Source: a virus (taxonomy: Duplodnaviria > Caudoviricetes). From it: DNA of 24,785 bases. Location: the IMG/VR virus record IMGVR_UViG_3300027777_000139, positions 1 to 24,785 of that record; one strand, given 5' to 3'. Under the pieces are notes generated by a model, which searched no databases, had not been told where the DNA came from, and saw nothing but the letters and a program-made list of their open reading frames with translations. This document shows, piece after piece, positions 188 through 16,683 of this stretch (position 1 is its first letter; every line of letters begins with the position of its first letter). The position numbers and the translations under genes were made by a program.

Positions 188-439
188 TTACCAGTTAGGA
201 CAATTCCAACGTTTCAAAGAGGCTTTTGCTCTCGGCGCATCACCTTTTGCATGCTCTACAACACCACTCATTCTCGCGCAAAACGAGTCCTTACGGGCTC
301 CTCCTTGAGGTTGTGGAGCCTTTAAATGGCTACCAGTCTCACGGTTGTATTTTGCACGCCCTTTAGCGGTTAATCCAGCGCCTTTTGACTCAGGAAGTTT
401 CTCACCGCGTCCAACAGCTAATGATGGATTCTTTGCCAT
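188..439 (-). CDS. Small basic phage protein, DUF6321-like
   Basis: Motifs GLTAKGRAKYNRETGSxLKAP, RKxSFCARM and terminal RWNC match a family I recall from aquatic phage structural modules. The DUF label is from memory. Confidence 0.65.
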   Translation of the reverse strand: MAKNPSLAVGRGEKLPESKGAGLTAKGRAKYNRETGSHLKAPQPQGGARKDSFCARMSGVVEHAKGDAPRAKASLKRWNCPNW

Positions 440-442
440 GAC

Positions 443-1045
443 TTACCAGCAAGTCTTTTTAGCCGAGCCGCCAGTTTTCATTTTGGCCGTTTTAGCAGAC
501 TGCTTAAATGCATCGGCAGTTGGCGCACCTTTGCTACCAACTTTTCGCATTTTTTCGCCAGAGCCTTCAGAAATTCTTTGCTGTTTTGCATGAATATTTG
601 CATATAGTCCGCCTCCCGACTTTCTGTTTGGAAGTTTCTCTAATGCCGTATCACCAGAAGCTTTACGGCGCTCATTTACTTGCGCAAGAATACGCTTGTC
701 ATACTCAGCATTCTTCTGAGCATTTTTAGCGTAAAAAGCCGCGTTGTCAGCCTTTTCTTTTTCTTGTTTGGCTTTATACATAGAGCCAGTACGTATCGCC
801 TCACGATCCGCTTGAGTGTATGGGCGAGGGGCTTTTATACCTTTTGCTTTAAGCGAGTTGTAATAGTCCTCATCGCTGTCATAGTCCATTGGATTGACAG
901 AAGCACGACCACCAACAGCTTTCTTGGCCGCACGCTTGGTGCTGTAAGCGATCGCCACGGCTTGCTTTTGGGGCTTGCCTGCGGCCATTTCTGCCTTGAT
1001 GTTGGACTTAAAAGCTTTGTCAGATTTTGATTTGATCAATGGCAT
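443..1045 (-). CDS. Lys-rich putative virion/core protein with three modules separated by xxxGG motifs
   Basis: N-terminal MPL...GKPQKQAVAIAYS module and C-terminal GLYANIHAK...KGAPT module; linkers KAVGG, RKSGG, MKTGG; SD AAGGA upstream. Confidence 0.7.
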   Translation of the reverse strand: MPLIKSKSDKAFKSNIKAEMAAGKPQKQAVAIAYSTKRAAKKAVGGRASVNPMDYDSDEDYYNSLKAKGIKAPRPYTQADREAIRTGSMYKAKQEKEKADNAAFYAKNAQKNAEYDKRILAQVNERRKASGDTALEKLPNRKSGGGLYANIHAKQQRISEGSGEKMRKVGSKGAPTADAFKQSAKTAKMKTGGSAKKTCW

Positions 1046-1053
1046 GATTATCC

Positions 1054-1473
1054 TTAAGCGTATGGATTGACGTAATGCTTTTGCATTTCTAAAACTACGG
1101 TATACGAATCACCAGCAGATCCATCAAGCGTAGTAAACGAAATTGAACCCGTTTTTCCAGCGCCAGAATTATTGTTTAAACCGCCAATTTTGGAATAGTC
1201 TTGCGTATACGCATTGTTTTGCGGGATAGTTTCAATTACAACGGGAGCCGTAGCTACCCAATTCATTTGAACTTCAAGTCCATGAGTCAACGCCGTCACT
1301 TTTAAGATGGTAACGGCGTCACAAGCTCCGCCAGCGGCAGATGCAGTCAACGTTGAAGGATTTACCTTGACAACAGCAGACTCATTTTCAGTTGCGCTCA
1401 TGGTTGCGTAAAACTTCATGATGGCAATTCTTTCGCCATCAAACAATGTTTGTGATGTAGCTGTTATAGCCAT
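1054..1473 (-). CDS. Putative structural protein (beta-rich); probable start MAITATS at 1473
   Basis: GGAG 6 nt before the ATG at 1473; Thr/Ser/Gly/Val-rich composition; located downstream of the capsid genes. Confidence 0.6.
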   Translation of the reverse strand: MAITATSQTLFDGERIAIMKFYATMSATENESAVVKVNPSTLTASAAGGACDAVTILKVTALTHGLEVQMNWVATAPVVIETIPQNNAYTQDYSKIGGLNNNSGAGKTGSISFTTLDGSAGDSYTVVLEMQKHYVNPYA

Positions 1474-1487
1474 ATATATCTCCAATT

Positions 1488-1514
1488 AAAAGTAGGGGGC
1501 ACGTAGCCCCCCAC
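1488..1514 (-). terminator. Probable intrinsic terminator after the 431-aa gene
   Basis: Minus strand GTGGGGGGC-TACGT-GCCCCCTAC stem followed by TTTT. Confidence 0.7.
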
Positions 1515-1519
1515 TCAGT

Positions 1520-2815
1520 TTATGCTCTTCCGCCGCGTTTGCGGGGCGCCACCGTCACTGATTTCTCAGTTTTTGTAACGCTACCTGCGGGTGCTGGCTT
1601 GCTAGTGAAGTAGTCTTTGATCTTTCCGTAACCTTCTTTGATCATGCTCAAAGGGTTCAGCGCGTCTTCAAGCTCACGGCTTGCTTTGTCTGTAACCACT
1701 TTGGGATCACCAGCGGGGGTAACGGAAGAACCTTCAGCATACTTCTTAGCCTTGCCACCTTTGGCGTAGCCTCTGTTTACTTCGTGCTTGGCCGTCATGT
1801 GAGCATCTTCTAGGTCGTCGGTGTGTGAATCACCTTCGCTTAGATGCTTACCTTCAGGTGAGTAGAACTTGGTTCTGTACTCTTCCCAATCACGGTCTTT
1901 GTAAACTTTAGCTACATGGCCTTTTGGGCCAGTATGGGTCTTAATCAATCGAAGATTGGGTTTATCCTCTTTTTTTTTAACCTCACCACCTTTAGCAAAG
2001 GTGCCAGACTGCAAGCTGTTTGCCACTGGACGTGACACAGGCTTGCGTGGCATAGCGACGGGTTTGCCTGAATCAACAGTACCCCCCGTCGCGTAGGCTT
2101 TTTTTGTTGAACCACCCTTCTTGTAGCCGCCGCCGTTGCCGTTCTTCACGCCACCAGTGGTTGCGTTAGTAACACCAGCTTTTGCTGTGTCAGCAGGACG
2201 GTTTTCCCAATTGACGTTGCCGCCTTTTTTGTAGCCACCAGCGTTGCCCATCTTGACGCCACCAGTACCAGAAGCCTTGTCAGCCTTGTCGCCGTCCACC
2301 ACTTTGGTGTTCAAAAACTTGCCTGCATTGCCTTCAATGGTGCCACCGTTTTTGAAGCCACCAGCGTTCTTTTCCTTGATGCCTTTGGTGCCAGAAGCCT
2401 TATCGGTCTTGTCACCATCAACAACTTTGGTATTAACGAACTTACCAGCATTACCTTTGATGGTAGTTTTGGTTTCATCTTTATCGATTGCGCCACCAGA
2501 AGCGAACTTCTTGCCAGCCATAGCCTTCTTGATCATTGCGCGATCTTGAGCGGCATCTTCATGCATGTCAGCCTTGCCACCTTTTTTGGCCATCATCATA
2601 GGGTTCATCGCTTTACGACGAGCCATCATTGAAGGCTTTTTAGGAGCCATGCCCATAGGAGCACTTGCCATTGCTGGTGCTTGAGCAGGCATAGTAGATT
2701 GCATAGGCATGTAACCGCCGTCCATCTTTGAAGCAACTTTGCCGCCTTTTTTAAGCTTCAGGATTACTGAAGGCTCTGTGGTCATCATTTTGACCATTGG
2801 TTTGAATTGACCCAT
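1520..2815 (-). CDS. Lys/Gly/Met-rich repetitive putative internal virion protein (431 aa) with about 10 xxxGG motifs
   Basis: LKKGG, AKKGG, FASGG, FKNGG, YKKGG x2, YATGG, FAKGG, YAKGG, RKRGG; SD AAGGAG upstream; lies in the structural operon. Confidence 0.7.
   Translation of the reverse strand: MGQFKPMVKMMTTEPSVILKLKKGGKVASKMDGGYMPMQSTMPAQAPAMASAPMGMAPKKPSMMARRKAMNPMMMAKKGGKADMHEDAAQDRAMIKKAMAGKKFASGGAIDKDETKTTIKGNAGKFVNTKVVDGDKTDKASGTKGIKEKNAGGFKNGGTIEGNAGKFLNTKVVDGDKADKASGTGGVKMGNAGGYKKGGNVNWENRPADTAKAGVTNATTGGVKNGNGGGYKKGGSTKKAYATGGTVDSGKPVAMPRKPVSRPVANSLQSGTFAKGGEVKKKEDKPNLRLIKTHTGPKGHVAKVYKDRDWEEYRTKFYSPEGKHLSEGDSHTDDLEDAHMTAKHEVNRGYAKGGKAKKYAEGSSVTPAGDPKVVTDKASRELEDALNPLSMIKEGYGKIKDYFTSKPAPAGSVTKTEKSVTVAPRKRGGRA
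2219..2464 (-). repeat. In-frame tandem duplication, 2 x 123 nt (41 aa)
   Basis: TIKGNAGKFVNTKVVDGDKTDKASGTKGIKEKNAGGFKNGG (2342-2464) versus TIEGNAGKFLNTKVVDGDKADKASGTGGVKMGNAGGYKKGG (2219-2341). Confidence 0.9.
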
Positions 2816-2827
2816 GACTGCTCTCCT

Positions 2828-3793
2828 TTAGGCTTGTGTTACGCCAAGAGCGCCAACGCGAGTAGCGTTAGGCCCAACAGCGATTGCAGGCAACAAGATT
2901 CCCATTGTTGTACGAACGATACCGTTCGATGCAGTGGCAGGGGCGTATGTACCGCGAACGTCACCAGTACCTGTGGTTGCCGTTGCAGTGTCTGCGGCGA
3001 CAAACGTACCAGCGTCTTGCGCTAATGTGTTGTTGCTTTTGACGCTAGCAACGTATGACACGTTGAACACGCGAACTGGAAGACCCAGAACGTCGCTTGT
3101 GCCAACCACAACAGCAGTTGCAGAGCCAGCAATAGTCACACCACTGATTTGGTAGAAAGCCTTCAAACCAGTCACAGCAGTTGCGGCAGTCACCACAGTG
3201 ATAACTTCACTCATTGCCTGTCCGTAGTAGTCGTAACCACTGACGGTGAAAGCACGAGCAGTTGTTGAGGAGTTCACCTTGATTGCGCGAGGCAAGTCCA
3301 ACTGAAGAACAGTTGTACCGTCAGTGCGAACAACTGACTTGACCGAAGTACCAGCCGTCAAAGTGACTGCCTGACCAGCGGTGGTGGTTGTTTGCGACGC
3401 GGCAATGTTGTTAGTGACGGCGGCTTGAGGAATGACGTCCCAAACGTAGATGCGACCCAGAGGGCCAATACCCAAGTCCATAGGAGAAGGATTATCAAGA
3501 GTCGTATTGGTGTGCGCAGAGATGGTTGTACTAGAAGCGGTCACCGATTGGTTAACCGTGTAAGTACCCGTACCTCCAGTACCAGTAACAAACGCAGTGA
3601 TGTAAGTACCGTCGGTCACGCTGGTGCCGTCGATGTACATACCAAGCACGATTGGTGAGCCAGACAGCATTGCGGTTACCGTCAATGTTGTGGTAGCAAT
3701 CGAGCCAGTAAAAGTAGAGGTGTAAGGACGCAGACCCGTACCCATGTAGGTTTGGGCTGGACCTAAAAATAGGTCGTCAGAATATTGAGGCAT
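2828..3793 (-). CDS. Thr/Ala/Val-rich structural protein (head decoration or fibre-like)
   Basis: Immediately downstream of the major capsid gene; strongly beta-type composition; SD AAGGAG. Confidence 0.6.
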
Positions 3794-3830
3794 TTTGTCT
3801 TCTCCTTGAAAAGTTTGACAAATACAAATT

Positions 3831-3863
3831 AAAAAAAAAGGGCTGGCTTTTTAGACCAGCCCT
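3831..3863 (-). terminator. Intrinsic terminator after the major capsid gene
   Basis: AGGGCTGG/CCAGCCCT 8-bp stem followed on the minus strand by a run of 9 T, just after the capsid stop codon. Confidence 0.85.
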
Positions 3864-3870
3864 GTTTGCT

Positions 3871-4785
3871 TTAGACGCCAGCAGTGCCGTAAGCGGCACG
3901 CGGATCTGTAAAGCCTACGTCGTAACGCTCTGTAGCCTTGTAACGCATGGAGTCGGTTTCAAAGTCACCTTCCATGGTCTTCTCAAGACGACGACGCATC
4001 AACAACTTGAAGCCTTCTGGAGCGTCGGTCTGCACCCACCATGCGGTAGATGAAGTCAAACGTGACAGAACTGCGGCACCCTCGTCCAACAAGCCAATTG
4101 CCTTGATGGGGTTGATGTCGTTGTTTGCGTTGCCTGTACGGAGGACAGACTTCAACAACACTTCGGCTTGGAAGATGTTGCCCGGTGCCACGATCAATTG
4201 ACGTGGAACCAAACGAATCTTCTTACCGTTGTTGTCAACAGCTTGGCGGATTTGGATCAACATTTGTTCCAATGATGTCTGCGACAAGTTAGCTGATGTA
4301 GCCAACTGGTTGCTGAACGTACCGTTCACGATTGGGTGAGCAGTGTTGATCAAAGAAACGCCGTCGCCACCGGGGTAGCTGGAGTTGAAGGCTGTGTTCA
4401 ACACGTTAGCTGACAACAACTCTTTGGTTTCCACCAAAGACTGTGCCAAGTGGCGTGCATAAACTTGACCGATACGGATGTGATCGCCGTCTTCAACAAG
4501 CACTTTGGTCAAAGCGAAGGCCAAGCCATACACTTTGTACACATAGCGCTTCAAGAAGAGTACGCCACCTTGCTGATAGGTAACTGGAGTACCGTCAGGC
4601 AATTGTGGAGCGGCGCCAAATCCATAAAGGACAGGCTCTTCGTGGTAGTTACGTGGAATACCGTCTTCTTCGCGGAACACTCGGCTCCACTCGTCGGCAC
4701 GTTGGTCATAGACTCCATCGAAGCATTCATTGAGGATAGGTTCAACAATACTTCTAAAGTCCGTACTGCGCATTGGTGCGGCCAT
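3871..4785 (-). CDS. Major capsid protein (HK97 fold, Mu gpT-like family)
   Basis: 304 aa; motifs GGDGVSLxxxAHP, PRQLIVAP, WWVQTD, GDFETDSMRYKATERYxxGFTDPR; strong SD (AAGGAG); followed by a terminator; synteny with scaffold and portal. Confidence 0.9.
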   Translation of the reverse strand: MAAPMRSTDFRSIVEPILNECFDGVYDQRADEWSRVFREEDGIPRNYHEEPVLYGFGAAPQLPDGTPVTYQQGGVLFLKRYVYKVYGLAFALTKVLVEDGDHIRIGQVYARHLAQSLVETKELLSANVLNTAFNSSYPGGDGVSLINTAHPIVNGTFSNQLATSANLSQTSLEQMLIQIRQAVDNNGKKIRLVPRQLIVAPGNIFQAEVLLKSVLRTGNANNDINPIKAIGLLDEGAAVLSRLTSSTAWWVQTDAPEGFKLLMRRRLEKTMEGDFETDSMRYKATERYDVGFTDPRAAYGTAGV

Positions 4786-4796
4786 GATTTAGCTCC

Positions 4797-5396
4797 TTAT
4801 GCAATAGCAGTCACAGAACCGAAGAACTGAGACTGAGCGTTAACAACTCGAACAACGGTGTAGCTATCGCCCCACGCATTGTCCACATACGGTGCCAAAT
4901 CAACGACACGCATCTGACCTTGGACTCCGTTACCAGCGGCAGTAGCAGAGCCTAAAGTAGCTTGCGACAGACCAGTAGTAGAAGAACCTGCGGTAGTGGC
5001 GGTGAAGTTGTATTCATTACCAATCGTGGTTTGTGCCATAGCACCATCGGCTTGAATTTCATAAACGATGTTTTGGTCGTTGTAGAAATAAGCTATAGCA
5101 GAACCTGCTGTGTAAGAGGTGCTAGCTGGATAGTAGTTAGAGACACGGCGACGACCAGTTGTATCAGTCCATTCAAAACCTGCAAAAGCACCAGACCACG
5201 CAACAGCGGATCCAGATGCAGGAGCGGTAGTTAAAGGAACGATTACACCAGCGGAAGCTGAATAGGCAACAGGTTGCCCTTTCAGGATTTGGGTTCCGTA
5301 ACCCGACGTAATACCGCCAGCAAGCGCCTGAGCGCGATCCAAACCAAAGGGATGGAACGCAGGACGCAAGCCAAACGGAGCATTAGTACTAGACAT
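4797..5396 (-). CDS. Putative capsid decoration/cement protein
   Basis: 199 aa, Ala/Gly/Thr-rich, N-terminal NAPFGLRP motif, directly upstream of the capsid gene. Confidence 0.6.
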   Translation of the reverse strand: MSSTNAPFGLRPAFHPFGLDRAQALAGGITSGYGTQILKGQPVAYSASAGVIVPLTTAPASGSAVAWSGAFAGFEWTDTTGRRRVSNYYPASTSYTAGSAIAYFYNDQNIVYEIQADGAMAQTTIGNEYNFTATTAGSSTTGLSQATLGSATAAGNGVQGQMRVVDLAPYVDNAWGDSYTVVRVVNAQSQFFGSVTAIA

Positions 5397-5417
5397 AAAA
5401 AACTCCTTAGTTAAAGA

Positions 5418-5963
5418 TTACCCAGCGAAAACTGGGACTTTGCTTGGTTGCTGATCAAAAGAGCCAAGACCTTCACCTTCAACATTAACTAGTGACTTAC
5501 CGTTGCTATCTCTTTGCCCTTGGAGACTTTCTAGCTGAACGCGAACTTTGTCGCTTTCCTCACGAGGCTTGTCATGGTGGTGATACAACATGAGATCCTG
5601 ATAAATATCCATTGGCAATTTAAACAGCAACATTTCGTTACAAGCTATATGCCCAATTTGCTCTCCAGATTTAACCTTGTAATCTTCATAGCCGGGTAAC
5701 TCTTCAGATTTAACTGGCACGTACCCATTGCGAATCCGTTTATCGATTGAATCGTAGCTATTGGTTGTCGAAAGCCAGCAAAGGTGCCACCCATCCATGT
5801 TGGGCAGTTTTGGCAGTGCTGATTGCGTCCATTCCTCGTCCCACATCTTGCGACGTTCTTGCGTAGAAATGAACTTAGTCTCTGGGGCTGAGCGGCTTGC
5901 CTCCACACTTGCGCGTTCCTGACGTCCGCCAGCCTTCAAAGATTTTTTTAAACGTGATTCCAT
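5418..5963 (-). CDS. Conserved head-module protein of unknown function (181 aa; start MESRLKK)
   Basis: GGGAG 7 nt before the ATG at 5963; the longer ORF-track start would overlap the scaffold gene. Lies between scaffold and decoration genes. Confidence 0.7.
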   Translation of the reverse strand: MESRLKKSLKAGGRQERASVEASRSAPETKFISTQERRKMWDEEWTQSALPKLPNMDGWHLCWLSTTNSYDSIDKRIRNGYVPVKSEELPGYEDYKVKSGEQIGHIACNEMLLFKLPMDIYQDLMLYHHHDKPREESDKVRVQLESLQGQRDSNGKSLVNVEGEGLGSFDQQPSKVPVFAG

Positions 5964-5980
5964 ATTATTACTCCCATGTA

Positions 5981-6961
5981 TTAGTTGCGGTTCAAGCGAT
6001 CGAACTTGACGAATTCGGCGATCATCTTCTTTTTGCGTTCTGGGTTGTCCCATGCACCAATCTCTTTCATTGCTTTGACCCTTTCAGGTGAAAGCATGAA
6101 CTGAGAGCGGTTGTTACCCCCAAATGCGGCTGAAGCTTCACGACCAGAACTTCCCACTACGTTCCTCGGTTTCCTAACGACGGAATTATCGTTTGTGTTC
6201 TGATTGTAACGGTGTGGTAGAGATTTTTGCAAGCGACTATCTAACTCATCCCAATAATCAGGATCAGATGGATCCCAACCTTCGGTTACTAGCAACTCAT
6301 CTACCTTCTTTGCGACACGACTATCAGTTTCGTTTGACTCTGGGTTGTACCAAGAGTTACGCTTCATCCAATCAGCGGCATTACGCTGTACTGTTGGGTC
6401 TGGCAACTCTTGACGAGGCTGTTCTTGCGCCTCTTGTGATGCACGGTTCTTAATTCCTTGCAGTTGCACAAGTTGATTCTCAGCATCACGCCACAAAGTC
6501 TGTGCTTCGACCATTGCGTCGCCGTCACTGTTCTCCGCGGCCTCTTTAAGCTTCATCTTGGCGTATTCCAAACGTACTTGGCTGTCCTCGATGTTCTTAT
6601 CGATGCGTGAAATCTGCCCTTGTTTGGTTTCGCGCTCTACATTCGACAATCTGCGCTTGAATTCTTCATTCTCACGCTGTAATTGACTAAGGCGAATGTC
6701 TTTTTCTTCCCTTGTAGCCCTCTGAGCTAGTCTTTTGGCCTTGCGGATGTTGCGTTTAGCTTCCCTAAGCTCTGCATTGTCATCAGGATGGTCTGCATCG
6801 TCGGAATCAACGTCGCCACCCTTTGATTTTTCATTAGAAGACTGATTGTTTTGGTCTGAATCGTCGTCATTGATCATGTTGTCAGGCAAATCTACGACTG
6901 CGGAACCGTCTTTACCCTCTTCAATGTTCAATTCCAACTGTTCTTTGGTATCTGTACTCAT
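5981..6961 (-). CDS. Putative capsid scaffolding protein
   Basis: Acidic N-terminus, long coiled-coil middle, WxxRNxWY and YWxELDxRL motifs, helical C-terminus (LSPERVKAMKEIG); between portal and capsid genes. Confidence 0.7.
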   Translation of the reverse strand: MSTDTKEQLELNIEEGKDGSAVVDLPDNMINDDDSDQNNQSSNEKSKGGDVDSDDADHPDDNAELREAKRNIRKAKRLAQRATREEKDIRLSQLQRENEEFKRRLSNVERETKQGQISRIDKNIEDSQVRLEYAKMKLKEAAENSDGDAMVEAQTLWRDAENQLVQLQGIKNRASQEAQEQPRQELPDPTVQRNAADWMKRNSWYNPESNETDSRVAKKVDELLVTEGWDPSDPDYWDELDSRLQKSLPHRYNQNTNDNSVVRKPRNVVGSSGREASAAFGGNNRSQFMLSPERVKAMKEIGAWDNPERKKKMIAEFVKFDRLNRN

Positions 6962-6973
6962 TTTTTTGTCCCC

Positions 6974-7429
6974 TTAAACATAAGCTTTGAAAGACAGCGG
7001 ATCGTCAGTGATTTTTGCAATCACTTCGTGGTCATTTATCGTCATGAACAGCACTGGATCTTCTTTGGAGTCTGCATTGGGGTCATTACGCTCCCAACGA
7101 TCTCCACCCCAGCGTGGTACACGCACGAAATCACCTACTTGTGCCCAAGTTCCCTCTGGCCAAGACTCCATGGTGTCGCGGTTTTTGTATGCCAAAGGCC
7201 CAAGTGCCACGACCTTACCGATCATGTTGTTCCACTTTTCGTTTTCTTTGGTTTCATCGACGATGATGATCATTCCAGCCTTCTTTTTGATGCGGCGTAA
7301 CTGAACAATTACGCGCCCTCCAAGAGGTGTCTGACCTGCATTCACTTGCGGGAATGCCCACTCCAGCTCTTGAGGATCAGACGCTTGCGCGCTTCCCTCG
7401 ATCGTTGGGATCTTTTCTTTCTCACTCAT
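6974..7429 (-). CDS. groES: GroES/Cpn10-like co-chaperonin (start MSEKEKIP)
   Basis: PLGGRVIVQ, mobile-loop-like AGMIIIVDETKENEK, GKVVALGPLAY, VGDFV, INDHEVIAKI match the Cpn10 pattern; AGGAG before the ATG at 7429. Confidence 0.8.
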   Translation of the reverse strand: MSEKEKIPTIEGSAQASDPQELEWAFPQVNAGQTPLGGRVIVQLRRIKKKAGMIIIVDETKENEKWNNMIGKVVALGPLAYKNRDTMESWPEGTWAQVGDFVRVPRWGGDRWERNDPNADSKEDPVLFMTINDHEVIAKITDDPLSFKAYV

Positions 7430-7507
7430 ACTAACTCCTAAAATGCACCATAATTGCAGATGCGTCATTTATGCGTTTTTCAACGCGGCCTCGTCCTTTA
7501 GGGGGAC

Positions 7508-7687
7508 TTATTCTTGATTTCTGTCTTCGTCTAACATTCGGTTAATGGTATCAAGCACAAATTGCAGTCCCTGATACTCACCAACCATTCGTTGATACGC
7601 TTCCCACGTAATTGCGTTGCCAACAGCAAGAGATGAGGCAATCTCTCCTTGGCGTAGCTTCAATACGTGAATAACGGGGTCAATCAT
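7508..7687 (-). CDS. Small helical protein (59 aa, MIDPVIHVLKLRQGEIASSLAVGNAITWEAYQRMVGEYQGLQFVLDTINRMLDEDRNQE)
   Basis: Hand-translated, below the ORF-track cutoff. ATGA overlap with the upstream gene; fills the gap before groES. Confidence 0.75.
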   Translation of the reverse strand: MIDPVIHVLKLRQGEIASSLAVGNAITWEAYQRMVGEYQGLQFVLDTINRMLDEDRNQE

Positions 7688-7842
7688 TTCTTTTTAGCTT
7701 GCGACAAACCGCCTTGTGGCTTCTTGTCTTTTTGGCTTCCGCCCTTTGGCTCCAAGCTTGTGCCGTCCAGCTTTACGCCTTGAGCCAAGCGTGCGTGATA
7801 ACGCACCATTGGGCCTTTTTGTTCTGCATCAGATATTGCCAT
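7684..7842 (-). CDS. Small basic protein (52 aa, start MAISDAEQKG)
   Basis: AAGGAG before the ATG at 7842; overlaps the portal stop by 14 nt; Lys/Gly-rich tail. Confidence 0.65.
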   Translation of the reverse strand: MAISDAEQKGPMVRYHARLAQGVKLDGTSLEPKGGSQKDKKPQGGLSQAKKK

Positions 7843-10366
7843 TTTCGGCTCCTTGAGGTTGTGACGTTTCCGTCGGTTGTTGCATAGCCGCTTGTTGCAT
7901 GGCTGTTTCCTGCTCCAGTGCGTGCTTCTGCATGTCGTTAGCTTGCTCTGCGCCATGCATCTGCAAGGCGTTTTGCTGGGCTGTGTTTTGTTGAATCACT
8001 TGACCAGTGATCTTAGCGTTTTCTATTGCAATTTTGGCGGCTATCTCTTTGTCGTGCTCAGCAGATTGAGCAGATATTTTCAATTGTGCTTCTTGAGCAC
8101 GCTGTTGATCTGCCTGTGTCTTGCGTTGCGTCTCTGCCATGCTTGTGTCGTGAACGACCTGTGCATCTGGTGGCAGGTTCTGCTTGGCAGACTGTGCGCG
8201 CTGTTGTGCTTGCTGTATCAACTGCTGGAAGGCAGGTATGAACTGCTGGAACACTTCTTTAACATCCAACGTGATGTGGGCGCCAACCGTTGTGTACAAC
8301 TGGTCGATTACCGCGGTCATCTTTGGATCATCGTAGTTATCCACAGGCTTGCCCTTATTAGCTTGAGCCACATAGCCGTTAGAGCGGTTCAAGTACCACA
8401 AAGTCATGTGTTGCTTCAAATGCTCGATCAAGTGGTTTAGGTACTGTGGATCCGCAAATGGCGACTGTCCCAAGAATGGGTTTAAGCCAAACTGCAAGTG
8501 ATCCTGTATGTGAGCGATGTGATCCTGTTGCATGTACGCGTAGGCTGGCTGTCCAATCAGCATAGCCGCGTTTTCGTCAGCAGAAGTCCGCTGTTCAGGC
8601 GCAGGCACATCCTTCATCAACTCATTGATGTTAGGCACCTTCATCTGCTTGAGTGAACGAGACAACACAGCGCTCATGTTGAACTGGTCAGGATGCTTCT
8701 CAGCCAACTGAATCACAGCCTGCATCTGAGCCATACGCTGAGTCTCAGAGAAGATGTGTGGGTCAGAGACTGGCACCACGTCTGTGTTCTTTGAGAAGTC
8801 TTGGCGGTTGATCTCTAGATCTGCCACCACGTCAGACTTGCGCATCTCATCAAAGTGCCAACGGTTTAGGCGGCATAAGATTTTCAATACGCGTGCTTGG
8901 CTTTCGTGTAATCGTGCATGAATAGCACTAAACACCGCGGCGCCTTGCTCAATCAAAGCCTGTGTGGTGCCTACAGGCGCGTTAGCGTTGACGTCAGCGA
9001 TCTTTTCTTCACTGGTGGTCACTACCCCCTTGGCCGCGTTGTCAAGCCAGCCTAGGAGCTGGAATAGAACCGCGCTGGGTGGGTTAAAGGGCATAGGCAT
9101 AGCGATCTGGCGGATGTCTGTGACGCCCGGCGCGCCCTCTATCTCCACAATCTGCGTCACATCCACCGACTGACTCTGCCCCGACATCTTCGCTCCCTTG
9201 AGCTTGAGCATCGTCGCGGCGTTGTTAATGTGAGCACTATCCAAAAGGGCACGCAAAGAACCAGTAAGAGCGGCAGACAAGCCACCGATAAGATGAGGTA
9301 ACCCAATCGCATATGCGCCCCTCCAAGGAATAAACTTGAACTCCACAATCCAATCTAACTTGGTCATGGTTTCGTCTTGCTCTTCCCAGTTACGGTACAA
9401 ACCAATGACTTCGTTATCAAGTTCATCGATCATCAAGATGTAAGGCGCCATCTCACCCTTGGTGTACTTGTCGTCGTCCAACTCCAAGAAGGTGTAGACG
9501 TGATAGACCTTGCGCAGTCCATCTTCGTTGTCTTCCCACTTCTTGCCTTCAATCTTGTCGTTGGCTTTCTGTGGTCTTGTAAGCTCAGGTGACATGGTGG
9601 CTTGCACCATATCGATATCACGATACATGCCACTAGCTATACGTCGATTGAATTCCCAGTGCGTAATCTCATGCACTTCCGCCGCACGTTCTGCGGTGTA
9701 AAAGTTACTGGCCGCGAAGGGCAGAATCACACGATCGATAGGCAAAAACTCTACGCATGGGCGCTTTTTCTGCTCATCAAACCATAACTTAAAGTACTGT
9801 GAGCCACCTAGCGGTAATTGTGTAAGTAATTGTTCTTGTTCGTCACGGAATTCTTCGATCTGTTCGGTGATTTGCCAGTTGAGATAGTCACGCTTACGCT
9901 CTGCGCGCTCGGACTTGATCTCATCCATCTTGCCTAGGATTTTGGTTCGGACGGGGCCGTCAGGCGGAAACATCTCTTTAATAGCGCGTGCCGCGAAGTC
10001 CACACATCCTTCAGCCATAGAAGGGTGTACCACTTTGCTAGCGCCCATGAAGGTGGCACCGCCGGGCGCGTCATTCCCCATACCAGTGCGCCGAATACCC
10101 TCTTCATACTGCTTGTCTCTTTGCTCACGCGCATCTTTGTCCTTCTTCAGCAAATCAACGTACCGACTAGCCAACGTCATCAACTTGAAGTCGTCGTAGT
10201 CTTCAGCCATGTTGGCGTAGAAGTCTGGATTGGCCTCTGGGCCATCCTCCTCCATAGTAACTATGGCGCTACCGTCAGGCTGTTCTTCCGTTTCAATCTC
10301 AGGTAGATCTACTGCGGCACTGCCGTCTTCGTTCTCTGTGATCTGTGGGTCTAGTTCATCCATCAT
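7829..10366 (-). CDS. Portal protein with long Gln-rich C-terminal extension
   Basis: 845 aa; GASKVVHP...FxARAIKExFPPDGPVRTKILG, helical core, APVGTTxALIEQG, VVPVSDP motifs; between terminase and scaffold/capsid genes. Confidence 0.85.
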   Translation of the reverse strand: MMDELDPQITENEDGSAAVDLPEIETEEQPDGSAIVTMEEDGPEANPDFYANMAEDYDDFKLMTLASRYVDLLKKDKDAREQRDKQYEEGIRRTGMGNDAPGGATFMGASKVVHPSMAEGCVDFAARAIKEMFPPDGPVRTKILGKMDEIKSERAERKRDYLNWQITEQIEEFRDEQEQLLTQLPLGGSQYFKLWFDEQKKRPCVEFLPIDRVILPFAASNFYTAERAAEVHEITHWEFNRRIASGMYRDIDMVQATMSPELTRPQKANDKIEGKKWEDNEDGLRKVYHVYTFLELDDDKYTKGEMAPYILMIDELDNEVIGLYRNWEEQDETMTKLDWIVEFKFIPWRGAYAIGLPHLIGGLSAALTGSLRALLDSAHINNAATMLKLKGAKMSGQSQSVDVTQIVEIEGAPGVTDIRQIAMPMPFNPPSAVLFQLLGWLDNAAKGVVTTSEEKIADVNANAPVGTTQALIEQGAAVFSAIHARLHESQARVLKILCRLNRWHFDEMRKSDVVADLEINRQDFSKNTDVVPVSDPHIFSETQRMAQMQAVIQLAEKHPDQFNMSAVLSRSLKQMKVPNINELMKDVPAPEQRTSADENAAMLIGQPAYAYMQQDHIAHIQDHLQFGLNPFLGQSPFADPQYLNHLIEHLKQHMTLWYLNRSNGYVAQANKGKPVDNYDDPKMTAVIDQLYTTVGAHITLDVKEVFQQFIPAFQQLIQQAQQRAQSAKQNLPPDAQVVHDTSMAETQRKTQADQQRAQEAQLKISAQSAEHDKEIAAKIAIENAKITGQVIQQNTAQQNALQMHGAEQANDMQKHALEQETAMQQAAMQQPTETSQPQGAENGNI

Positions 10367-13300
10367 TTAGCTTTCTTTGTTCTGCGGCTTAATTCTAAGT
10401 TAATGGTATCCATATTTGTGGATAGGTTCACTTTGCCGCCTTTTTTATATCCATGTCTTTGCAAGTGTGTGAGAAATTCTTCAGACAAATGCTGTGACGG
10501 TGTATTGCGTGTTAAGTCCATAAAGCCAACATCACGTCCTTTTGCTTGTTTGATCTTGCCATGAAACTCAGGCAACATGATCTGACGTGGAACTGGATGG
10601 AACATCTGACCTAAGTCTTCTCCATGCAACATGTGAGGGAATGCTGGGTTTAGATCTGGTTGTACAGAACGCTGTCCACTCAACTGAAATAGGCGAGGGC
10701 CAATTGCGTGTGTAGGTGCACCAAGCAACTCAGGCTCTGTTGTGTCGGCCACTGTCTTGTCGTAGTTCAAGATTTGCCCCTTCTTACCACCCACAGCTTT
10801 ACCGCCCATTAAGTCAGCCATAACGCGACGTTGATCGAAAGTATTGAGGTTTTTAAAGAAGTTCTTGCTTGCAATGTCTGCGTTAGAAAAGATTGGCTTG
10901 CCTTCGCTGTCTGCCGCCATGGCCAATTGAGCATTGATGCGATCACGCAATTCAGGCGTCATCTTGCCAGACTTAATACCACTCTTGAACTGCTTCATCA
11001 GCATATCAAACACCATTTGGTTTGATGTGTGTTGGTTAGGAGCGCCGAGCAATGTAGACCACAACACATCACCCTCTGGGTGAGCGGCATTGGCGTTAGC
11101 GATCTTGGAGGCGGCGCCTGATGAGTTCACGCCCCACGCGACGTCTTTGTGTGAAGGGTAAAGGTGTTGCAGACCAGAAAACCCCGGGCCTCCGAGGAAC
11201 CCGCCACCCACCTTTGTGCGATCAGACTGTGTAACCTTCAAATGCTTTCCCTCATGCTTACCCAACGCCTCCGATGCCTTTGTGACTTTAGGTCTGAACT
11301 TGTCTGGGCTCTTCTGCGTAGGGCTTGCCGATCCGCCTTCTTTAAATCCATAGTCAGCCAAGTTTTGTTTCTGCATACGTGGCAGATCTTTTGCCTTTGC
11401 CGCCTTGTTGATTGCTTTGACTTCCTTGTCATGCAATATACGGTTGACCTTCATCGCTCCACCAATCAGCCAGTTGCCTGTCATGTTGGAATTGGTCTTG
11501 TATCTGTAGTGACCGCCCTTGGGGATCTGGTCAGTGATGTGTGCTTCGCGTGCGATCAGCTTGCCCTTGGGGTTCATGCCACGCTCATTGGCTTCTGTTT
11601 GCCAATCGACATCGTTAGGCATCTCGACCTCAGCCCATACGTGGTTGTGGGGACGGACGTCTGGTGCTGTTAGTTCAGGGTCAGACTTCTCACCGATGTG
11701 GGTAGCGACGGGTAGATCACCAGCGTGCCAACCGGGTCGATACGCCAGCGGGCCAATCTTGCTCTTCACCTTGCTACCAGCCATCTCACCCTCTTGAGCG
11801 TCCACCCATTTGTTCATCTCTACGGGATCGTTGGCGTTGACAAAAAGAGGGAACAACTTGCCGGGATGCTTCTTGTGTACGCGGAACAATTTGTACGCCT
11901 TAACCGTGCTCTTTGGTTCCTTAGAAGACTTTTTTCCTGCACGCCCTCCATCAGCATATCCATGGTCATGCGTCATACATGGCGTGCCCTTGGACTTCAT
12001 CTCTTGCTTCATCTTCTCAATAGAACCACCCTTAGCAATTTGCTGTACGTTATCGATATTAAATGTAGTAACACCGTTGTCTGGCTTCCATCCATTGTCT
12101 ACTGGAGCCATGTTGTCACTTCCACCAATCTTGTATGGTGCAGGTACAGATCCGCCCACAGCCATGCGTGGAGGCGCCTGTGGTGGGCTCATAGCGTTCA
12201 ATGCTTGCCCTTGCTTAGTCATCTGCAAGATGTTGCTTGGTGGCTGTGGAGATGGTGCTCCTGCGCCCAAAGGGGAGGGCATACCACCAGCTTGTGGGGG
12301 CTGGCCTTGTGGCGCTCCTTGTGGTGGAGCCATGCCAGCAGGCATTAACTGTTGGCCGCCTTGTTGTTGGCTCATATCAATGCCGCCGATAGGCAATGGC
12401 TGGTCACCCATGCTCACACCACCTACAGGTAGTTCACCGCCAGATGGTGGGACATAAGCCTTGACGTTCATGCTAGGCGCTTCGTTAGCACCGATGGTAG
12501 ATAAGTCAGACAGGCTTACAGGCTTCTTGCCTATTAGCTCTGCACGCATTTGATTCATTGATGGCACAGCACCGCCGACGGCTTTGTTGATCACCATCTT
12601 GTTGAGCTTCTTGCCAGTCTTCTCTTGTGTGTAGTAAGAGTTGTGGCCAGCCTTACGTAGCCCCATCTGTACGCGTGGGTCTTCCATGTGCTTGTAGCTA
12701 CCAGAGGAAAGCACTTCGCCTAAGCGTGTATGGGCTTCAGGCAGATCTTTAAAGTCTTTGTGCTTGGATACATGCCCAGCAACTGTACTTACATGCTCAG
12801 GGTTCTCATAGTCAAATGGGTTCACAGCGCCTCCTTCGGCTTTACGTATTATCCCGCCATTCGCTTTGTTTAGATTCCTACTAGCGAATGCGCTTTCTTC
12901 TTCAGGTGTTAAAGCTTCTATATCTTCTTTGTTCAAATATCTTTTGCCCCACTTGTGCAATTCAGCGTTATGTATGTCACCAACGTCAGACCAATTACCA
13001 CTCTTTACAAAGTCTTGAACAAATGGAATGTAATCCTTCTTGGGCTTCTTATTGCCCTTGCCTTTGATCTGAACAATCTGTTGTGGCACCTCACCCATAT
13101 GGGACTTGATGGCGTTGCTTAGTGCCTGCCCCCAAGTAAATCTATCCTCTTCTGGGGTACGCTTTTGTTTTGTCGCCTCGTGCTCAGCAAGCGCTTGCTT
13201 TGTAATTGCATCTTGCAATTCTTCAGGTTGACTTGTGAACCAATCAGTTTCGTACTTGCTTCGCGCTTGGTTAGGTCTAACCTCAATCGTTACGTGTGGT

Positions 13301-15144
13301 TCATTATTGGCATCACGCAAGCTGAAGATGCGTGTACGGCCTTCCAGCACGTCAGGGCAATATCCACCAACGCAATGACCCATGGTGTTGCCTTCGTACT
13401 TGAGGGCTTCCTCAAGAGCTTTTTCATCTTCAGCACCAATCGTTGATTTTTCATGCGCCACCTTGAGGGCTTCTTCTTTTGTTTCACCAAGGTATCTACG
13501 GGTTCTTTGAGGATCAAGAATGCTTGGGCCTTCTAAGCGCTCATAACCACTTTTTGGCTCAACCCATCTAAATCCTTCTGGCAATGGTTTGTTGACATCA
13601 ATCTTTGGCTTGGCCAACTCAATCCACTTGTAACCTTCTGGATACTCTTTGTGGACTGCCATGCCTTCGGTAGCCTTGAGAGCCGTCTCAGCCATAGCCT
13701 TCTTCTTCTCTTGATCGTACTCATGTGCACGACGTACAGCCTGCTCAATGCTGACCTTATTCAACTGCTCAGGACGAATACGCCCACTGGCTAAGTCTTC
13801 TTTTAATACATCCACCAAGTGATCAAAGCCCAAACTACTGGCTTGCATGTTACTGCTTGCATGTAACAACTTAGTGCTTGGGTCAGCCTTCTCCATCCAA
13901 GGTTCTTGGAATCGCTTGTGTAACTTCTCTATCGATGTAGGAGTAATCGCTACGTCTGCGGCATCTTCCCAAGCCTTTGCCTCTTCTGACTTGCCAAAGC
14001 TCTCACCACCATGAGTAGTCCGATGTTCGCCAGCTTTGTATCTGTTTATTCCAACTTGTTCGCTAGGAATGTGGACGATGCCTTGCTCCGCTAGGTTGCG
14101 GATTGGATCGTTTTGTGTGGCCATCTGCTTTTTGATGTAGTTGCCTAAGTTGCTCTGAATCCATTTGTTCAGGTGAACCTTGTGCTCTAGCTCTGTCTTT
14201 TGGCGAGGAATCATCTCGCGGACATTGGGCTGTGTCTGTGCTACTTGCTCGATTGCTTCTGGTGTCCACTTTTGGTTCATCTCTGCCAAAGTCTCAGCAG
14301 GGTCGCTTCCCACCGCTGTTCTTTGCTTCAATGGATGCAAGACTTGCTCAACGGATCCGCTCACCCAATTGCGTGGGCCTTGGCCTCCGATAGCAAGGTG
14401 AGCTACACCGCCTTTGGACTTCCTGTTCATCAGCTCAAGGCGCATCCTGTCCATGTCTACTTGACCGCCGTTGGCTTTGCGCTGTGCTATTAGTTTCTTT
14501 AACTCTTCAAGACGTTGTGCGTGGCGTTTGTCCATGTCAACGTACTGCCTGTCAAACTCACCTTCGTTAATATTGCCCAGTGCTTTCTGCGCATCAAACT
14601 CAACAGGCCGTGGCTCCATGCCAATCGCTTTTCTGGCCGCATTAGCTATGTGAATTTTGGCATCGTTGACATCGTTTGCATTTGTACCTGATGTTTTAAT
14701 CGCCGAGCTTATGTTATTGATTACAGACTCATTCAAAGGGTTGTACACGTTTCGCTCGAATGTCTTCTGCGCCAACTGGCGGAACGGCAACATGGCGTCT
14801 AAGCCTCGTTGGATATGCGGCGCTATGTATCTGTTGAACTGCTCAGGAATAGTAGGTGCTCGATCTCTAAGCGCCTCATTTAAGTCATCCAAGCTGATGC
14901 TGTTGGAGCCACCTACATCAAAGCGCCTGATCGATCCGCCCTCTGCCGCCAATGGATACTGGTCGCCAGTATCTGCCGCACTCAATGGGCGCAGAGGCTG
15001 TATCTTCTTAGCCTCCTCCTCCATACGCTTAGATCCGATCTCACGTCGGCGGTAGGCTTCAGCATCAGGCACCATAAGAGCACGTAGCCTTGCTAGCTCT
15101 GCTTTGATGTGTGGGGGCATGGGAACGGATTGGTTGTCAGCCAC
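10363..15144 (-). CDS. Large modular (polyvalent-type) protein, 1593 aa, with a PcfJ-like domain; putative packaged/ejected protein
   Basis: Single long ORF; AAGGA upstream; ATGA overlap with portal; PcfJ-type signature EGNTMGHCVGGY...IFSLRD...PHVTIEV...QIKGKGN; 14 linker xxxGG motifs. Confidence 0.75.
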   Translation of the reverse strand: MADNQSVPMPPHIKAELARLRALMVPDAEAYRRREIGSKRMEEEAKKIQPLRPLSAADTGDQYPLAAEGGSIRRFDVGGSNSISLDDLNEALRDRAPTIPEQFNRYIAPHIQRGLDAMLPFRQLAQKTFERNVYNPLNESVINNISSAIKTSGTNANDVNDAKIHIANAARKAIGMEPRPVEFDAQKALGNINEGEFDRQYVDMDKRHAQRLEELKKLIAQRKANGGQVDMDRMRLELMNRKSKGGVAHLAIGGQGPRNWVSGSVEQVLHPLKQRTAVGSDPAETLAEMNQKWTPEAIEQVAQTQPNVREMIPRQKTELEHKVHLNKWIQSNLGNYIKKQMATQNDPIRNLAEQGIVHIPSEQVGINRYKAGEHRTTHGGESFGKSEEAKAWEDAADVAITPTSIEKLHKRFQEPWMEKADPSTKLLHASSNMQASSLGFDHLVDVLKEDLASGRIRPEQLNKVSIEQAVRRAHEYDQEKKKAMAETALKATEGMAVHKEYPEGYKWIELAKPKIDVNKPLPEGFRWVEPKSGYERLEGPSILDPQRTRRYLGETKEEALKVAHEKSTIGAEDEKALEEALKYEGNTMGHCVGGYCPDVLEGRTRIFSLRDANNEPHVTIEVRPNQARSKYETDWFTSQPEELQDAITKQALAEHEATKQKRTPEEDRFTWGQALSNAIKSHMGEVPQQIVQIKGKGNKKPKKDYIPFVQDFVKSGNWSDVGDIHNAELHKWGKRYLNKEDIEALTPEEESAFASRNLNKANGGIIRKAEGGAVNPFDYENPEHVSTVAGHVSKHKDFKDLPEAHTRLGEVLSSGSYKHMEDPRVQMGLRKAGHNSYYTQEKTGKKLNKMVINKAVGGAVPSMNQMRAELIGKKPVSLSDLSTIGANEAPSMNVKAYVPPSGGELPVGGVSMGDQPLPIGGIDMSQQQGGQQLMPAGMAPPQGAPQGQPPQAGGMPSPLGAGAPSPQPPSNILQMTKQGQALNAMSPPQAPPRMAVGGSVPAPYKIGGSDNMAPVDNGWKPDNGVTTFNIDNVQQIAKGGSIEKMKQEMKSKGTPCMTHDHGYADGGRAGKKSSKEPKSTVKAYKLFRVHKKHPGKLFPLFVNANDPVEMNKWVDAQEGEMAGSKVKSKIGPLAYRPGWHAGDLPVATHIGEKSDPELTAPDVRPHNHVWAEVEMPNDVDWQTEANERGMNPKGKLIAREAHITDQIPKGGHYRYKTNSNMTGNWLIGGAMKVNRILHDKEVKAINKAAKAKDLPRMQKQNLADYGFKEGGSASPTQKSPDKFRPKVTKASEALGKHEGKHLKVTQSDRTKVGGGFLGGPGFSGLQHLYPSHKDVAWGVNSSGAASKIANANAAHPEGDVLWSTLLGAPNQHTSNQMVFDMLMKQFKSGIKSGKMTPELRDRINAQLAMAADSEGKPIFSNADIASKNFFKNLNTFDQRRVMADLMGGKAVGGKKGQILNYDKTVADTTEPELLGAPTHAIGPRLFQLSGQRSVQPDLNPAFPHMLHGEDLGQMFHPVPRQIMLPEFHGKIKQAKGRDVGFMDLTRNTPSQHLSEEFLTHLQRHGYKKGGKVNLSTNMDTINLELSRRTKKAK

Positions 15145-15201: not shown

Positions 15202-15255
15202 GGGGTGAACTGGGTTCATCCCTAATTGTTGTGCCGCGAACTGGGTTCACCCCTA
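15200..15255. repeat. Combined inverted and direct repeat
   Basis: TAGGGGTGAAC (15200-15210) is complementary to GTTCATCCCTA (15214-15224, 1 mismatch) and to GTTCACCCCTA (15245-15255, perfect); 18-nt direct repeat at 15207-15224 and 15238-15255. Confidence 0.85.
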
Positions 15256-16683
15256 CTCAGCATATGGGTTGCCCTTCTTACGCTTGTTGTACTCCTCAGC
15301 GTCGAAGATGTCATCATCGTCGTAGTCATCACGCGGTGCCACATCAATGCTGATCCATCCAGCATCCCTCATGTACCGTAAGCCCTGACTGATGCAGTCT
15401 ACAAACTCGTCGTGTACTGTCTCAGGGAAGGAGCAGATCTGGCTCACCATGCCTTCAGCCCAGTCCCTCACGTAGCCTTTGCGTTGGCTGTGCTCTGGCA
15501 CCCAAACACGGCCAGCTTTAATGATGTTGGCCACGATGCTGAGCCTTTGCGTCTTGTCAGCGCGACCGGGGTTATAGGGCATCACGGGTAGGTGCGCACG
15601 TTGCAAGTCTTGTATAAGACTTATGCCAGCGCTCTTATCTTCCACCAGCAATAGGTCAACGCGTTTCTTCTCACGTCCATCGCCATAGAACACCTCGAAC
15701 TCCTCGATCACTTTGGGGCGTAGGTCAGGATACTGTAGGTGCTCCTGCCAGCAGTCCAGCACCAGCACGCACATGCCACCATCCAATGGCTTGAATGCAC
15801 CCAGTGTGATGCATCCTGTAGGGTCGTTGATGGTCTTGTCGCTGGTCGCGCAGTCATAGGACTGGATGATGTACTCCAGCTTGGGGAAGGGCTTGCCATC
15901 TGGCCACAGGCGGAACCAATCACGCTTGACTATGCCACCCTCTTCAGGGTCGATGATCTCCGCATGGATCTCCTGACGGCCTAGGTTGGTGCCCTCGTAC
16001 TGCAAGATCTGCTTCTGGAACGATGGAGCTAGGTTCTTGATGTTGCTGTACGTGCTGGCGCGCGTGATAGTCACGTCGTCACCCTCACGTCCTATCAGGT
16101 CGAGCACCACGTCCTTTGGCTTAGGCGTGGTCGAGCATATGAGCTTAGTACGGTTGCCCAGACGTATACCGAACTGGATCATGTCCCACGACTCTTGCAG
16201 GTAGTCCCAAGCCGCAAGCTCGTCTAGCCATCCACCGTGGAACTGCGGACCGCGGAAGCGCTCTGGCTCCGACGCTGGTATGCCTTTGATAAACGATCCA
16301 TTGATAAGCCTGATCTCGTGCAGTGCTTTGTTGTAGTCGGCTACCAGTTCCTTTGGTATGACGTTGAGCAGTCCAGAGTCACCCTCGAAGCAGGTGCCCT
16401 TCACGTCTCCGCTAGTAGGCGCTGATACAAGCCATCTGGTATTAGGTTGCTCCCATGCCCACCATGCTAGCGTCTCTGCCGCCGCTCTAGTCTTACCAGC
16501 ACCACGGCCAGCCAGCATTAGCCATATGCTCCACCAATCACCGTTAGGCTCTATCTGATGCTTGTGTGCCTGTGTGCTCAGCCACTTCAACTGCCAGTTG
16601 ATGACAGTCTGCTCGATAGGCGTCCTAAGAGCAAACTCCTCAATGACCGCGGGGTCGGAGAGGATCTCGTCTAAGGCGCTCAT
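15253..16683 (-). CDS. terL: Terminase large subunit
   Basis: Walker A AGRGAGKT, RFRGPQFH, Walker B GWLDE, STTPK coupling motif, RNase H-like nuclease acidic motifs SYDCA, VEDKSAG, HDEFVD. Confidence 0.95.
   Translation of the reverse strand: MSALDEILSDPAVIEEFALRTPIEQTVINWQLKWLSTQAHKHQIEPNGDWWSIWLMLAGRGAGKTRAAAETLAWWAWEQPNTRWLVSAPTSGDVKGTCFEGDSGLLNVIPKELVADYNKALHEIRLINGSFIKGIPASEPERFRGPQFHGGWLDELAAWDYLQESWDMIQFGIRLGNRTKLICSTTPKPKDVVLDLIGREGDDVTITRASTYSNIKNLAPSFQKQILQYEGTNLGRQEIHAEIIDPEEGGIVKRDWFRLWPDGKPFPKLEYIIQSYDCATSDKTINDPTGCITLGAFKPLDGGMCVLVLDCWQEHLQYPDLRPKVIEEFEVFYGDGREKKRVDLLLVEDKSAGISLIQDLQRAHLPVMPYNPGRADKTQRLSIVANIIKAGRVWVPEHSQRKGYVRDWAEGMVSQICSFPETVHDEFVDCISQGLRYMRDAGWISIDVAPRDDYDDDDIFDAEEYNKRKKGNPYAE

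Follow-up and report, generated by a model that had tools for sequence, protein, structure and literature searches.

A Gly-Gly motif on modular, probable cargo proteins of an uncultured short-tailed phage: a possible docking tag

The locus and its Gly-Gly motif

We analysed a 24,785-nucleotide stretch of viral DNA (Duplodnaviria; Caudoviricetes; IMG/VR record IMGVR_UViG_3300027777_000139), referred to at its full length as the window, which contains the minus-strand head operon of an uncultured short-tailed phage. The genes are ordered terminase large subunit (TerL), a 1593-residue modular protein, portal, a GroES-like protein, a probable scaffold, two small conserved genes, capsid, and proteins of 321, 431, 143, 200 and 83 residues. 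A first-pass annotation had noticed that a short motif ending in Gly-Gly recurs in linkers of the 1593-, 431- and 200-residue proteins, and had proposed that these genes encode strings of virion cargo modules joined by a cut site or docking tag. Our working consensus, [FYMLK]-[AK]-x-G-G-x-[VIAM], spans seven residues, and tandem copies lie mostly 8-12 residues apart. Some copies are followed by a short amphipathic helix, the helix element. The features are listed below, with residue numbers of motifs and helix elements in brackets (pI, isoelectric point; ORF, open reading frame).

443..1045, minus strand: 200-residue basic protein, pI 10.0; phrog_2423 (residues 1-46) ends at KAVGG, and phrog_16028 (146-190) lies between RKSGG and MKTGG
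1520..2815, minus strand: 431-residue basic protein, pI 9.9; strict copies at residues 21, 104, 154, 195, 231, 241, 273 and 350, variants at 30, 76 and 425; a phrog_7884 module sits between copies 273 and 350
3871..4785, minus strand: major capsid protein, a context gene with no strict motif
5981-6961, minus strand: probable scaffold; KSKGG variant in the acidic N-terminal linker at 6809..6829
7829..10366, minus strand: portal, a context gene with no motif
10363..15144, minus strand: 1593-residue modular protein between TerL and portal; six segments joined by Gly-Gly motifs (residues 85-222; 256-758, with a PcfJ-like match; 774-853; 860-993, rich in Pro, Gln and Gly; 1070-1266, equal to phrog_30118; 1273-1565)
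14902..14949, minus strand: motif pair AAEGG (66) and FDVGG (75), both variants, then a helix element at 14869-14895
14377..14478, minus strand: motif triple KANGG (223), KSKGG (242) and LAIGG (250), helix element at 14431-14457; start boundary of the PcfJ module
12823..12867, minus strand: motif pair KANGG (760) and KAEGG (768); module boundary
12535..12585, minus strand: KAVGG (854) and helix element (862; 12535-12561); a separate ORF of relatives begins just past here
11938..12165, minus strand: cluster of MAVGG (994), YKIGG (1004), IAKGG (1036) and YADGG (1063), helix element at 1041 (11998-12024)
11326..11346, minus strand: FKEGG (1267); end boundary of the phrog_30118 module
10780..10800, minus strand: KAVGG (1449), a chance in-domain match, no tag
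10390..10449, minus strand: C-terminal YKKGG (1566) and helix element (1577; 10390-10416), followed by a basic tail
15253..16683, minus strand: TerL, a context gene with no motif

The scaffold is probable, judged by gene position and a coiled-coil look, with no family name behind the label. Between it and the portal sits a GroES-like co-chaperonin (6974-7468), which is retained in the named relatives with the same capsid type. The capsid protein is 77% identical to that of Caulobacter phage RW and about 42% identical to those of HTVC023P and CRP-901, and about 2300 stored IMG/VR stretches match the capsid patterns of the group. The downstream tail hub and ejection genes were taken from record G001, whose capsid and portal are 100% identical to those of the window; one of these ejection genes matches a 'DNA ejection protein' PHROG.

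All 14 copies that the first-pass annotation had listed for the 1593-residue protein are present; 11 fit the pattern, and AAEGG, FDVGG and KSKGG are variants. Its remaining counts were also borne out. The 'about ten' copies of the 431-residue protein are eight strict copies and three variants, the three of the 200-residue protein are two pattern matches and one variant, and the scaffold has the single KSKGG variant and no pattern match. TerL, portal and capsid lie outside the pattern as stated, with no strict motif or chance-level counts. In composition-shuffle controls the annotated pattern is far above chance in the two larger proteins: the 1593-residue protein has 12 matches versus a shuffle mean of 0.63 (maximum 5 in 2500 shuffles), or 1.8 (maximum 8) with Gly-Gly pairs kept, and the 431-residue protein has eight versus 0.66, or 1.8 with the pairs kept. 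The signal is modest in the 200-residue protein (two versus 0.11, or 0.48 with the pairs kept, p=0.08). Eleven core genes (2937 residues) show no enrichment, with one match versus 0.64 expected, and 22 other ORFs (2257 residues) have no match. In the 431-residue gene, no conserved -1 frameshift product is evident, its four slippery heptamers leading into -1 frames of 2-15 residues.

Because the pattern was defined post hoc, held-out tests were run. With a matrix trained solely on 40 relatives of the 431-residue protein, 137 matches were obtained in 101 TerL-to-portal proteins versus 1.0 in shuffled sequences, and none in portal, TerL, GroES, the 199-, 181- and 321-residue families or 219 tail proteins. 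Position +6, absent from the search pattern, is Val, Ala or Ile in 80% of 362 contexts. False matches of the loose pattern came from Gly-rich tail-fibre repeats, and were removed by barring Gly or Pro at +2 and Gly at +5. Across 1166 contexts, each of the 16 possible Gly-Gly codon pairs is used and codon use is near background, so a DNA-level recombination site at the motif is rejected. The motif is a protein-level signal under selection. The KAVGG copy at residue 1449, which the first-pass annotation had flagged as lying inside the last presumed domain, does sit there, on a conserved glycine loop. Of the 11 other distinct homologue windows, 10 fail to retain the first two residues of this copy, which is therefore rejected as a tag and regarded as a chance match.

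Distribution and placement among relatives

In non-redundant relatives, the slot between TerL and portal contains 303 copies versus 21.7 expected. All 60 ORFs of at least 700 residues in this slot are tagged, as are 16 of the 20 with 100-699 residues and none of the 21 with fewer than 100. The slot after the 321-residue gene contains 487 copies versus 24 expected. The motif is at or below chance in the TerL, GroES, capsid, 199- and 321-residue families of relatives; 30 portal homologues give one match versus 1.9 expected, and the capsid gives none, its 98 distinct sequences collapsing to one non-redundant sequence. In the scaffold the motif is optional, with 15 copies in 58 non-redundant scaffolds versus 1.3 expected, and scaffold copies sit in the acidic linker. 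Genome-wide enrichment among the named relatives is clear only in MW202545 (21 versus 4.2), DSL-LC04 (8 versus 3.1) and MinM2 (5 versus 2.0), and is weak or absent in HTVC023P, HTVC027P, RW, CRP-901, QDWS535, MW202785 and MW202796, several of which are partial genomes. The motif is confined to proteins that are probably internal or ejected, a cargo status that we infer for those of the window.

Relatives shuffle their modules at the motif, carrying them in other orders or as separate genes, in agreement with the first-pass view of these genes as strings of modules, and homologue breakpoints coincide with the motif. When the motifs were masked, alignments from 86 non-redundant relatives had 191 internal ends, 138 of them no more than 10 residues from a motif, versus 16% of positions, in a test run without a random-mask control and in which masking itself can end alignments. 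The rearranged module order is plain in an unmasked search of the relatives. Stand-alone PHROG families start or stop at motif copies in the 1593-, 431- and 200-residue proteins, and the modules of the last occur in relatives as separate genes or as DUF6321 fusions. In the near-identical phage G001, the small modules are arranged differently (window 188-1045 versus L165:208-981), and phrog_16028, which ends the 200-residue gene in the window, is joined to DUF6321 via a motif copy.

The motif also has a preferred place at the ends of proteins. The last copy lies no more than 30 residues from the C-terminus in 39 of 77 tagged TerL-to-portal ORFs and in 41 of 87 tagged post-capsid ORFs, and N-terminal placement occurs in only two of the 77. 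At 21 split-gene junctions, the motif ends 13 upstream ORFs and begins none of the downstream ones. The conserved tail of these upstream ORFs overlaps the next start codon, and part of it may therefore be a ribosome-binding site. The amphipathic helix follows Gly-Gly in 82 of 334 motifs (random control 6.4, maximum 14), five times in the 1593-residue protein; it also starts stand-alone ORFs, in all 14 cases without a preceding Gly-Gly, and could itself be the loading signal. The first-pass account of module strings and boundaries stands, but it overlooked this linked helix element, as well as the tape-measure hook domain described below.

Three further sequence features were observed among the relatives. 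Small tagged post-capsid proteins (for example L130:19873-20049 and L122:15556-15741) mostly end in Cys, Cys-Trp or x-Trp shortly past the motif, possibly for cross-linking or as a second terminal signal. Homologues of the terminase small subunit (L110:1599-1961, L113:4921-5271 and four more) begin K-K-x-G-G-R, which matches the loose pattern and is probably an ordinary basic N-terminus of that protein. An element E-x(1-2)-D-G-S-A-x-V is common to the N-termini of scaffold (window 6881-6937, residues 9-27) and portal (10256-10345, residues 8-37), both on the minus strand. It is present in 54 of 58 scaffolds and in 30 of 30 portals (18 with two copies), is absent from TerL, capsid and both cargo slots, and may form a docking hairpin of its own that serves head nucleation.

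The hook domain and crAss001 gp45

A third tagged slot lies downstream. In the first large gene past the tail hub, ejection slot 1, 43 proteins contain 49 copies versus 10.9 expected, and 22 of the 28 complete ones are tagged. Ejection slot 2 has six copies versus 2.4, and 219 upstream tail proteins have 10 versus 12.7 expected. The slot-1 signal comes largely from a single inherited feature, a conserved C-terminal domain of 160 residues that is opened by the motif and was detected in the fetched regions of six of 10 named relatives. The domain matches tape-measure PHROGs, down to E 3e-8, and the Douge tape measure (PDB 8zdo; E 5.5e-4, or 6.8e-10 via RW gp66c); a match to 8rk3 is weak (E 0.25). 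The domain also matches, weakly, the region of the JBD30 tape measure that has been named 'hook' and proposed as an anchor (PMC11445458). In RW gp66c, in the ejection-slot protein and in the tape measures of Douge and JBD30, the hook domain has the motif as its N-terminal element. A model of the domain (pLDDT, the predicted local distance difference test score, 79) gave no fold match. The hook domain (L179:14940-15449) is tandemly duplicated in most close relatives and single in G002, RW, MinM2, DSL-LC04 and the HTVC phages, which suggests that the single form self-pairs.

The same core, opened by the motif, is seen in siphophage tape measures (JBD30 gp46 1022-1066; Douge gp16; lambda gpH 733-782), and is C-terminal on the first ejection-slot protein of this group and on RW gp66c. 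Lambda gpH has two copies (733 and 778) around the similar core, with a pairwise E of 0.002 and a probability of 14%. The protein loses about 14 kDa by a cut whose site and enzyme are given as unknown (PMC12617516); by calculation, a cut at the first copy would free 12.2-12.5 kDa. The tape measures differ in having one or two copies in a single tail protein, whereas in these podophages the motif also occurs free of the domain, on many proteins.

In crAss001, gp45 (C1; PF25725; PDB 7QOG) occupies the same slot as the first ejection protein, after the tail hub/muzzle gene, and is virion cargo by mass spectrometry and cryo-electron microscopy (PMC10172136). It has eight motif variants by a relaxed reading, three of them strict, and 27 other crAss001 proteins examined have no strict copy. 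One copy is C-terminal and another opens the portal-bound domain; the Pfam family crAss_CARG1 (PF25725) likewise starts at the motif. Two gp45 segments have been modelled, 214-245 in the tail and 425-552 bound to the portal in the head (PMC10172136), both of which sit between motif copies. The motif at 424-428 overlaps the second segment, which starts at the motif's second residue, so the Gly-Gly lies inside the stated modelled range. Neither the motif nor cleavage of gp45 is mentioned in the available part of that paper. The motif is restricted to gp45 in crAss001, whereas in the window's phage group it is spread over three gene slots.

We also re-analysed 13 public MALDI (matrix-assisted laser desorption/ionization) peak lists of excised crAss001 virion bands (PMC6235969), a set in which small bands were not excised and the band-to-size order is inferred from the assignments. 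The proteins gp44, gp47/50, gp49, gp20, gp26, gp22, gp25, gp23, gp32, gp36 and gp29 were assigned at scores well above those of shuffles. None of the 13 bands shows gp45 above chance, not even those of about 77-100 kDa, where the 12-copy portal scores 11 versus 2.1. The motif-free gp46 is at chance too, save for a marginal 4 versus 1.7 in one band, so the absence of gp45 is weak evidence for processing.

Docking, cutting and other readings

A search of 22 ORFs in the window, 29 selected from relatives and 122 (70-900 residues) from two complete relatives gave no match to a prohead or di-glycine protease family. The sole peptidase match was an M15 endolysin, and most ORFs matched no family at all. 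The 181-residue gene (5418-5963) is not supported as a protease: it has no PDB sequence match and no Foldseek match at E<=0.001, and its VIA rows cover only the C-terminal helix. In its protein, His, Asp and Glu are conserved in 143 nearer homologues; this conservation does not extend to the distant phages RW, HTVC023P and CRP-901, across which no His, Cys or Ser is invariant. This ORF, called at 211 residues (5418-6053), most likely starts at 5963, which gives 181 residues. Throughout the group it is retained upstream of the capsid gene, and its model is confident (pLDDT 84) with no clear fold match.

The proteases of adenovirus and African swine fever virus (ASFV pS273R) act on a di-glycine consensus, (M/L/I)xGG. 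The first-pass annotation drew an analogy with them, and Gly-Gly does stand at putative junctions of structural polyproteins in both cases. The analogy does not hold further. In the window motif the conserved hydrophobic residue stands three positions before the first Gly, one farther than in the viral consensus, and Ala or Lys stands two before (a spacing fixed by the search pattern and backed by the held-out enrichment). Two residues thus separate it from Gly-Gly, conservation continues strongly past Gly-Gly, no C5/C48-type protease was found in the ORFs searched, and capsid and portal are not substrates. The capsid-targeting sequence of T4 and T4/SPN3US processing resemble our case in that one short motif marks unrelated internal head proteins and the scaffold, and loading and cutting can be coupled (PMC10052503). 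Like the T4 sequence, the window motif is limited to what is probably internal cargo, and lies at or near termini. In the part of that source available to us, the T4/SPN3US sites differ: they end in Glu, serve mostly to remove N-terminal propeptides, take in capsid and portal (both prohead-protease substrates in SPN3US), and need an encoded prohead protease, none of which is seen here. Functionally, the motif resembles a capsid-targeting tag or a site for a head protease, yet lacks the adenovirus/ASFV and T4/SPN3US features that were tested for.

Phage polyvalent proteins (Iyer et al. 2017, PMC5512222) are likewise large, shuffled multi-domain proteins encoded beside virion genes and thought to be packaged and processed. 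The 1593-residue protein is a shuffled multi-domain protein among late genes, but no zincin metallopeptidase (MPTase) or other hallmark domain was matched in it, Pfam giving only the PcfJ-like match. The resemblance is one of architecture only, and the words 'glycine' and 'PcfJ' are absent from the main text of PMC5512222. In the literature searched, which covered few subscription journals, we found no description of the motif.

We tentatively favour, at somewhat less than even probability, the reading that the motif is an uncut docking tag that gathers injected cargo in the virus head. The tag would fold as a small beta-hairpin with aromatic and Val residues on one face, and would dock cargo, uncut, onto a protein core at the portal during head assembly; its putative reader would be the hook domain or the portal wing. 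The tagged proteins would be packaged, by analogy with crAss001 gp45. Strings such as the 1593-residue protein may have arisen by fusion of stand-alone genes each ending in a tag, with extra copies adding avidity. Docking is ranked first because no protease was found, capsid and portal lack the motif, cutting at terminal copies would remove next to nothing, and in three phage groups the motif is an integral part of a folded domain. In particular, a cut at the C-terminal copies of stand-alone genes would free almost nothing, which favours a tag, and the Gly-Gly inside the modelled range of gp45 favours an uncut one. A motif-free capsid and portal, unlike those of SPN3US, argue for a tag over prohead-type cutting. 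The optional scaffold copy (15 of 58) is counted on the same side.

Several observations weigh against docking. Nearly all internal junctions retain the motif, with a median of five copies in all 60 large TerL-to-portal proteins, where one tag would be enough for loading, and the helix starts free ORFs without Gly-Gly, as if Gly-Gly were needed only where removal occurs. A capsid-tag role is impossible for the motif in siphophage tape measures, and Caulobacter phage RW has the hook domain and no other tagged proteins. The motif is at chance in ejection slots 3 and 4, and crAss001 gp46, gp47, gp49 and gp50 are cargo without it. Homology between the hook domain and crAss_CARG1 is not significant (no Pfam match, hhalign probability under 1%, no fold match), an Atlas score of 0.82-0.83 being a lead only. 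Finally, packaging of this phage's tagged proteins is itself argued by analogy.

A maturation cut site is the main rival and somewhat less probable than docking. On this account, cargo would be loaded as a polyprotein and cleaved at the motif or next to it, perhaps after the motif's first residue, so that its modules could be ejected in order. Cleavage would fall to an unrecognised protease, either the hook domain acting in cis and in trans or a host enzyme. Retention of the motif at junctions and the free helix ORFs fit this account, as do the two resolved gp45 segments between copies, the second starting at the motif's second residue, and, weakly, the chance-level gp45 signal in all 13 MALDI bands, which motif-free gp46 nearly shares. 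The loss of about 14 kDa from lambda gpH lies close to the 12.2-12.5 kDa calculated for a cut at 733, but the estimated extent of gpH* (about residues 1-710) ends some 25 residues before the motif, and T5 pb2, compared by its reported cut site alone, is cut after R1127 (PMC10038345). The protease search of 22, 29 and 122 ORFs also speaks against cutting, as does the trimming of only 2-30 residues at C-terminal copies; that the hook and 181-residue models match no protease fold is inconclusive. Docking and cutting are not mutually exclusive.

A reading with neither receptor nor protease is unlikely in our view. It would make the motif a flexible hinge, or a site where proteins unfold on their way through portal or tail, and recombination at the motif's coding sequence would have spread it. 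The motif does lie in linkers of proteins thought to be ejected, and breakpoints coincide with it, but its non-glycine positions are conserved, including the unselected +6, the free use of Gly-Gly codons leaves no DNA site, and C-terminal copies need no hinge. Slightly less likely again, we speculate that the tape-measure hook is an unrecognised self-processing domain that reads the motif. It would then act in cis on crAss gp45 and on siphophage tape measures, accounting for the lambda gpH cut, and would cut the tagged cargo strings of these podophages in trans. A nucleic-acid-binding repeat of the KGG/RGG kind would suit the basic 431- and 200-residue proteins (pI 9.9-10.0) and the many Lys-rich copies, but it is very improbable given scaffold copies in an acidic linker and uncharged or acidic copies in gp45 and the hook domain.

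There is little explanation so far of how short-tailed phages select the proteins that they inject and load them. Several culturable cases, namely crAss001 gp45, lambda gpH residue 733, HTVC027P and Caulobacter phage RW, bear on a question called open in a 2025 paper, that of the site and agent of the lambda gpH cut. If the hook were self-processing, one processing code would be common to sipho-, podo- and crassviruses. A portable seven-residue docking tag would let cargo be predicted from sequence in a very common phage group and in crassviruses, and could make it possible to load phage heads with proteins of choice.

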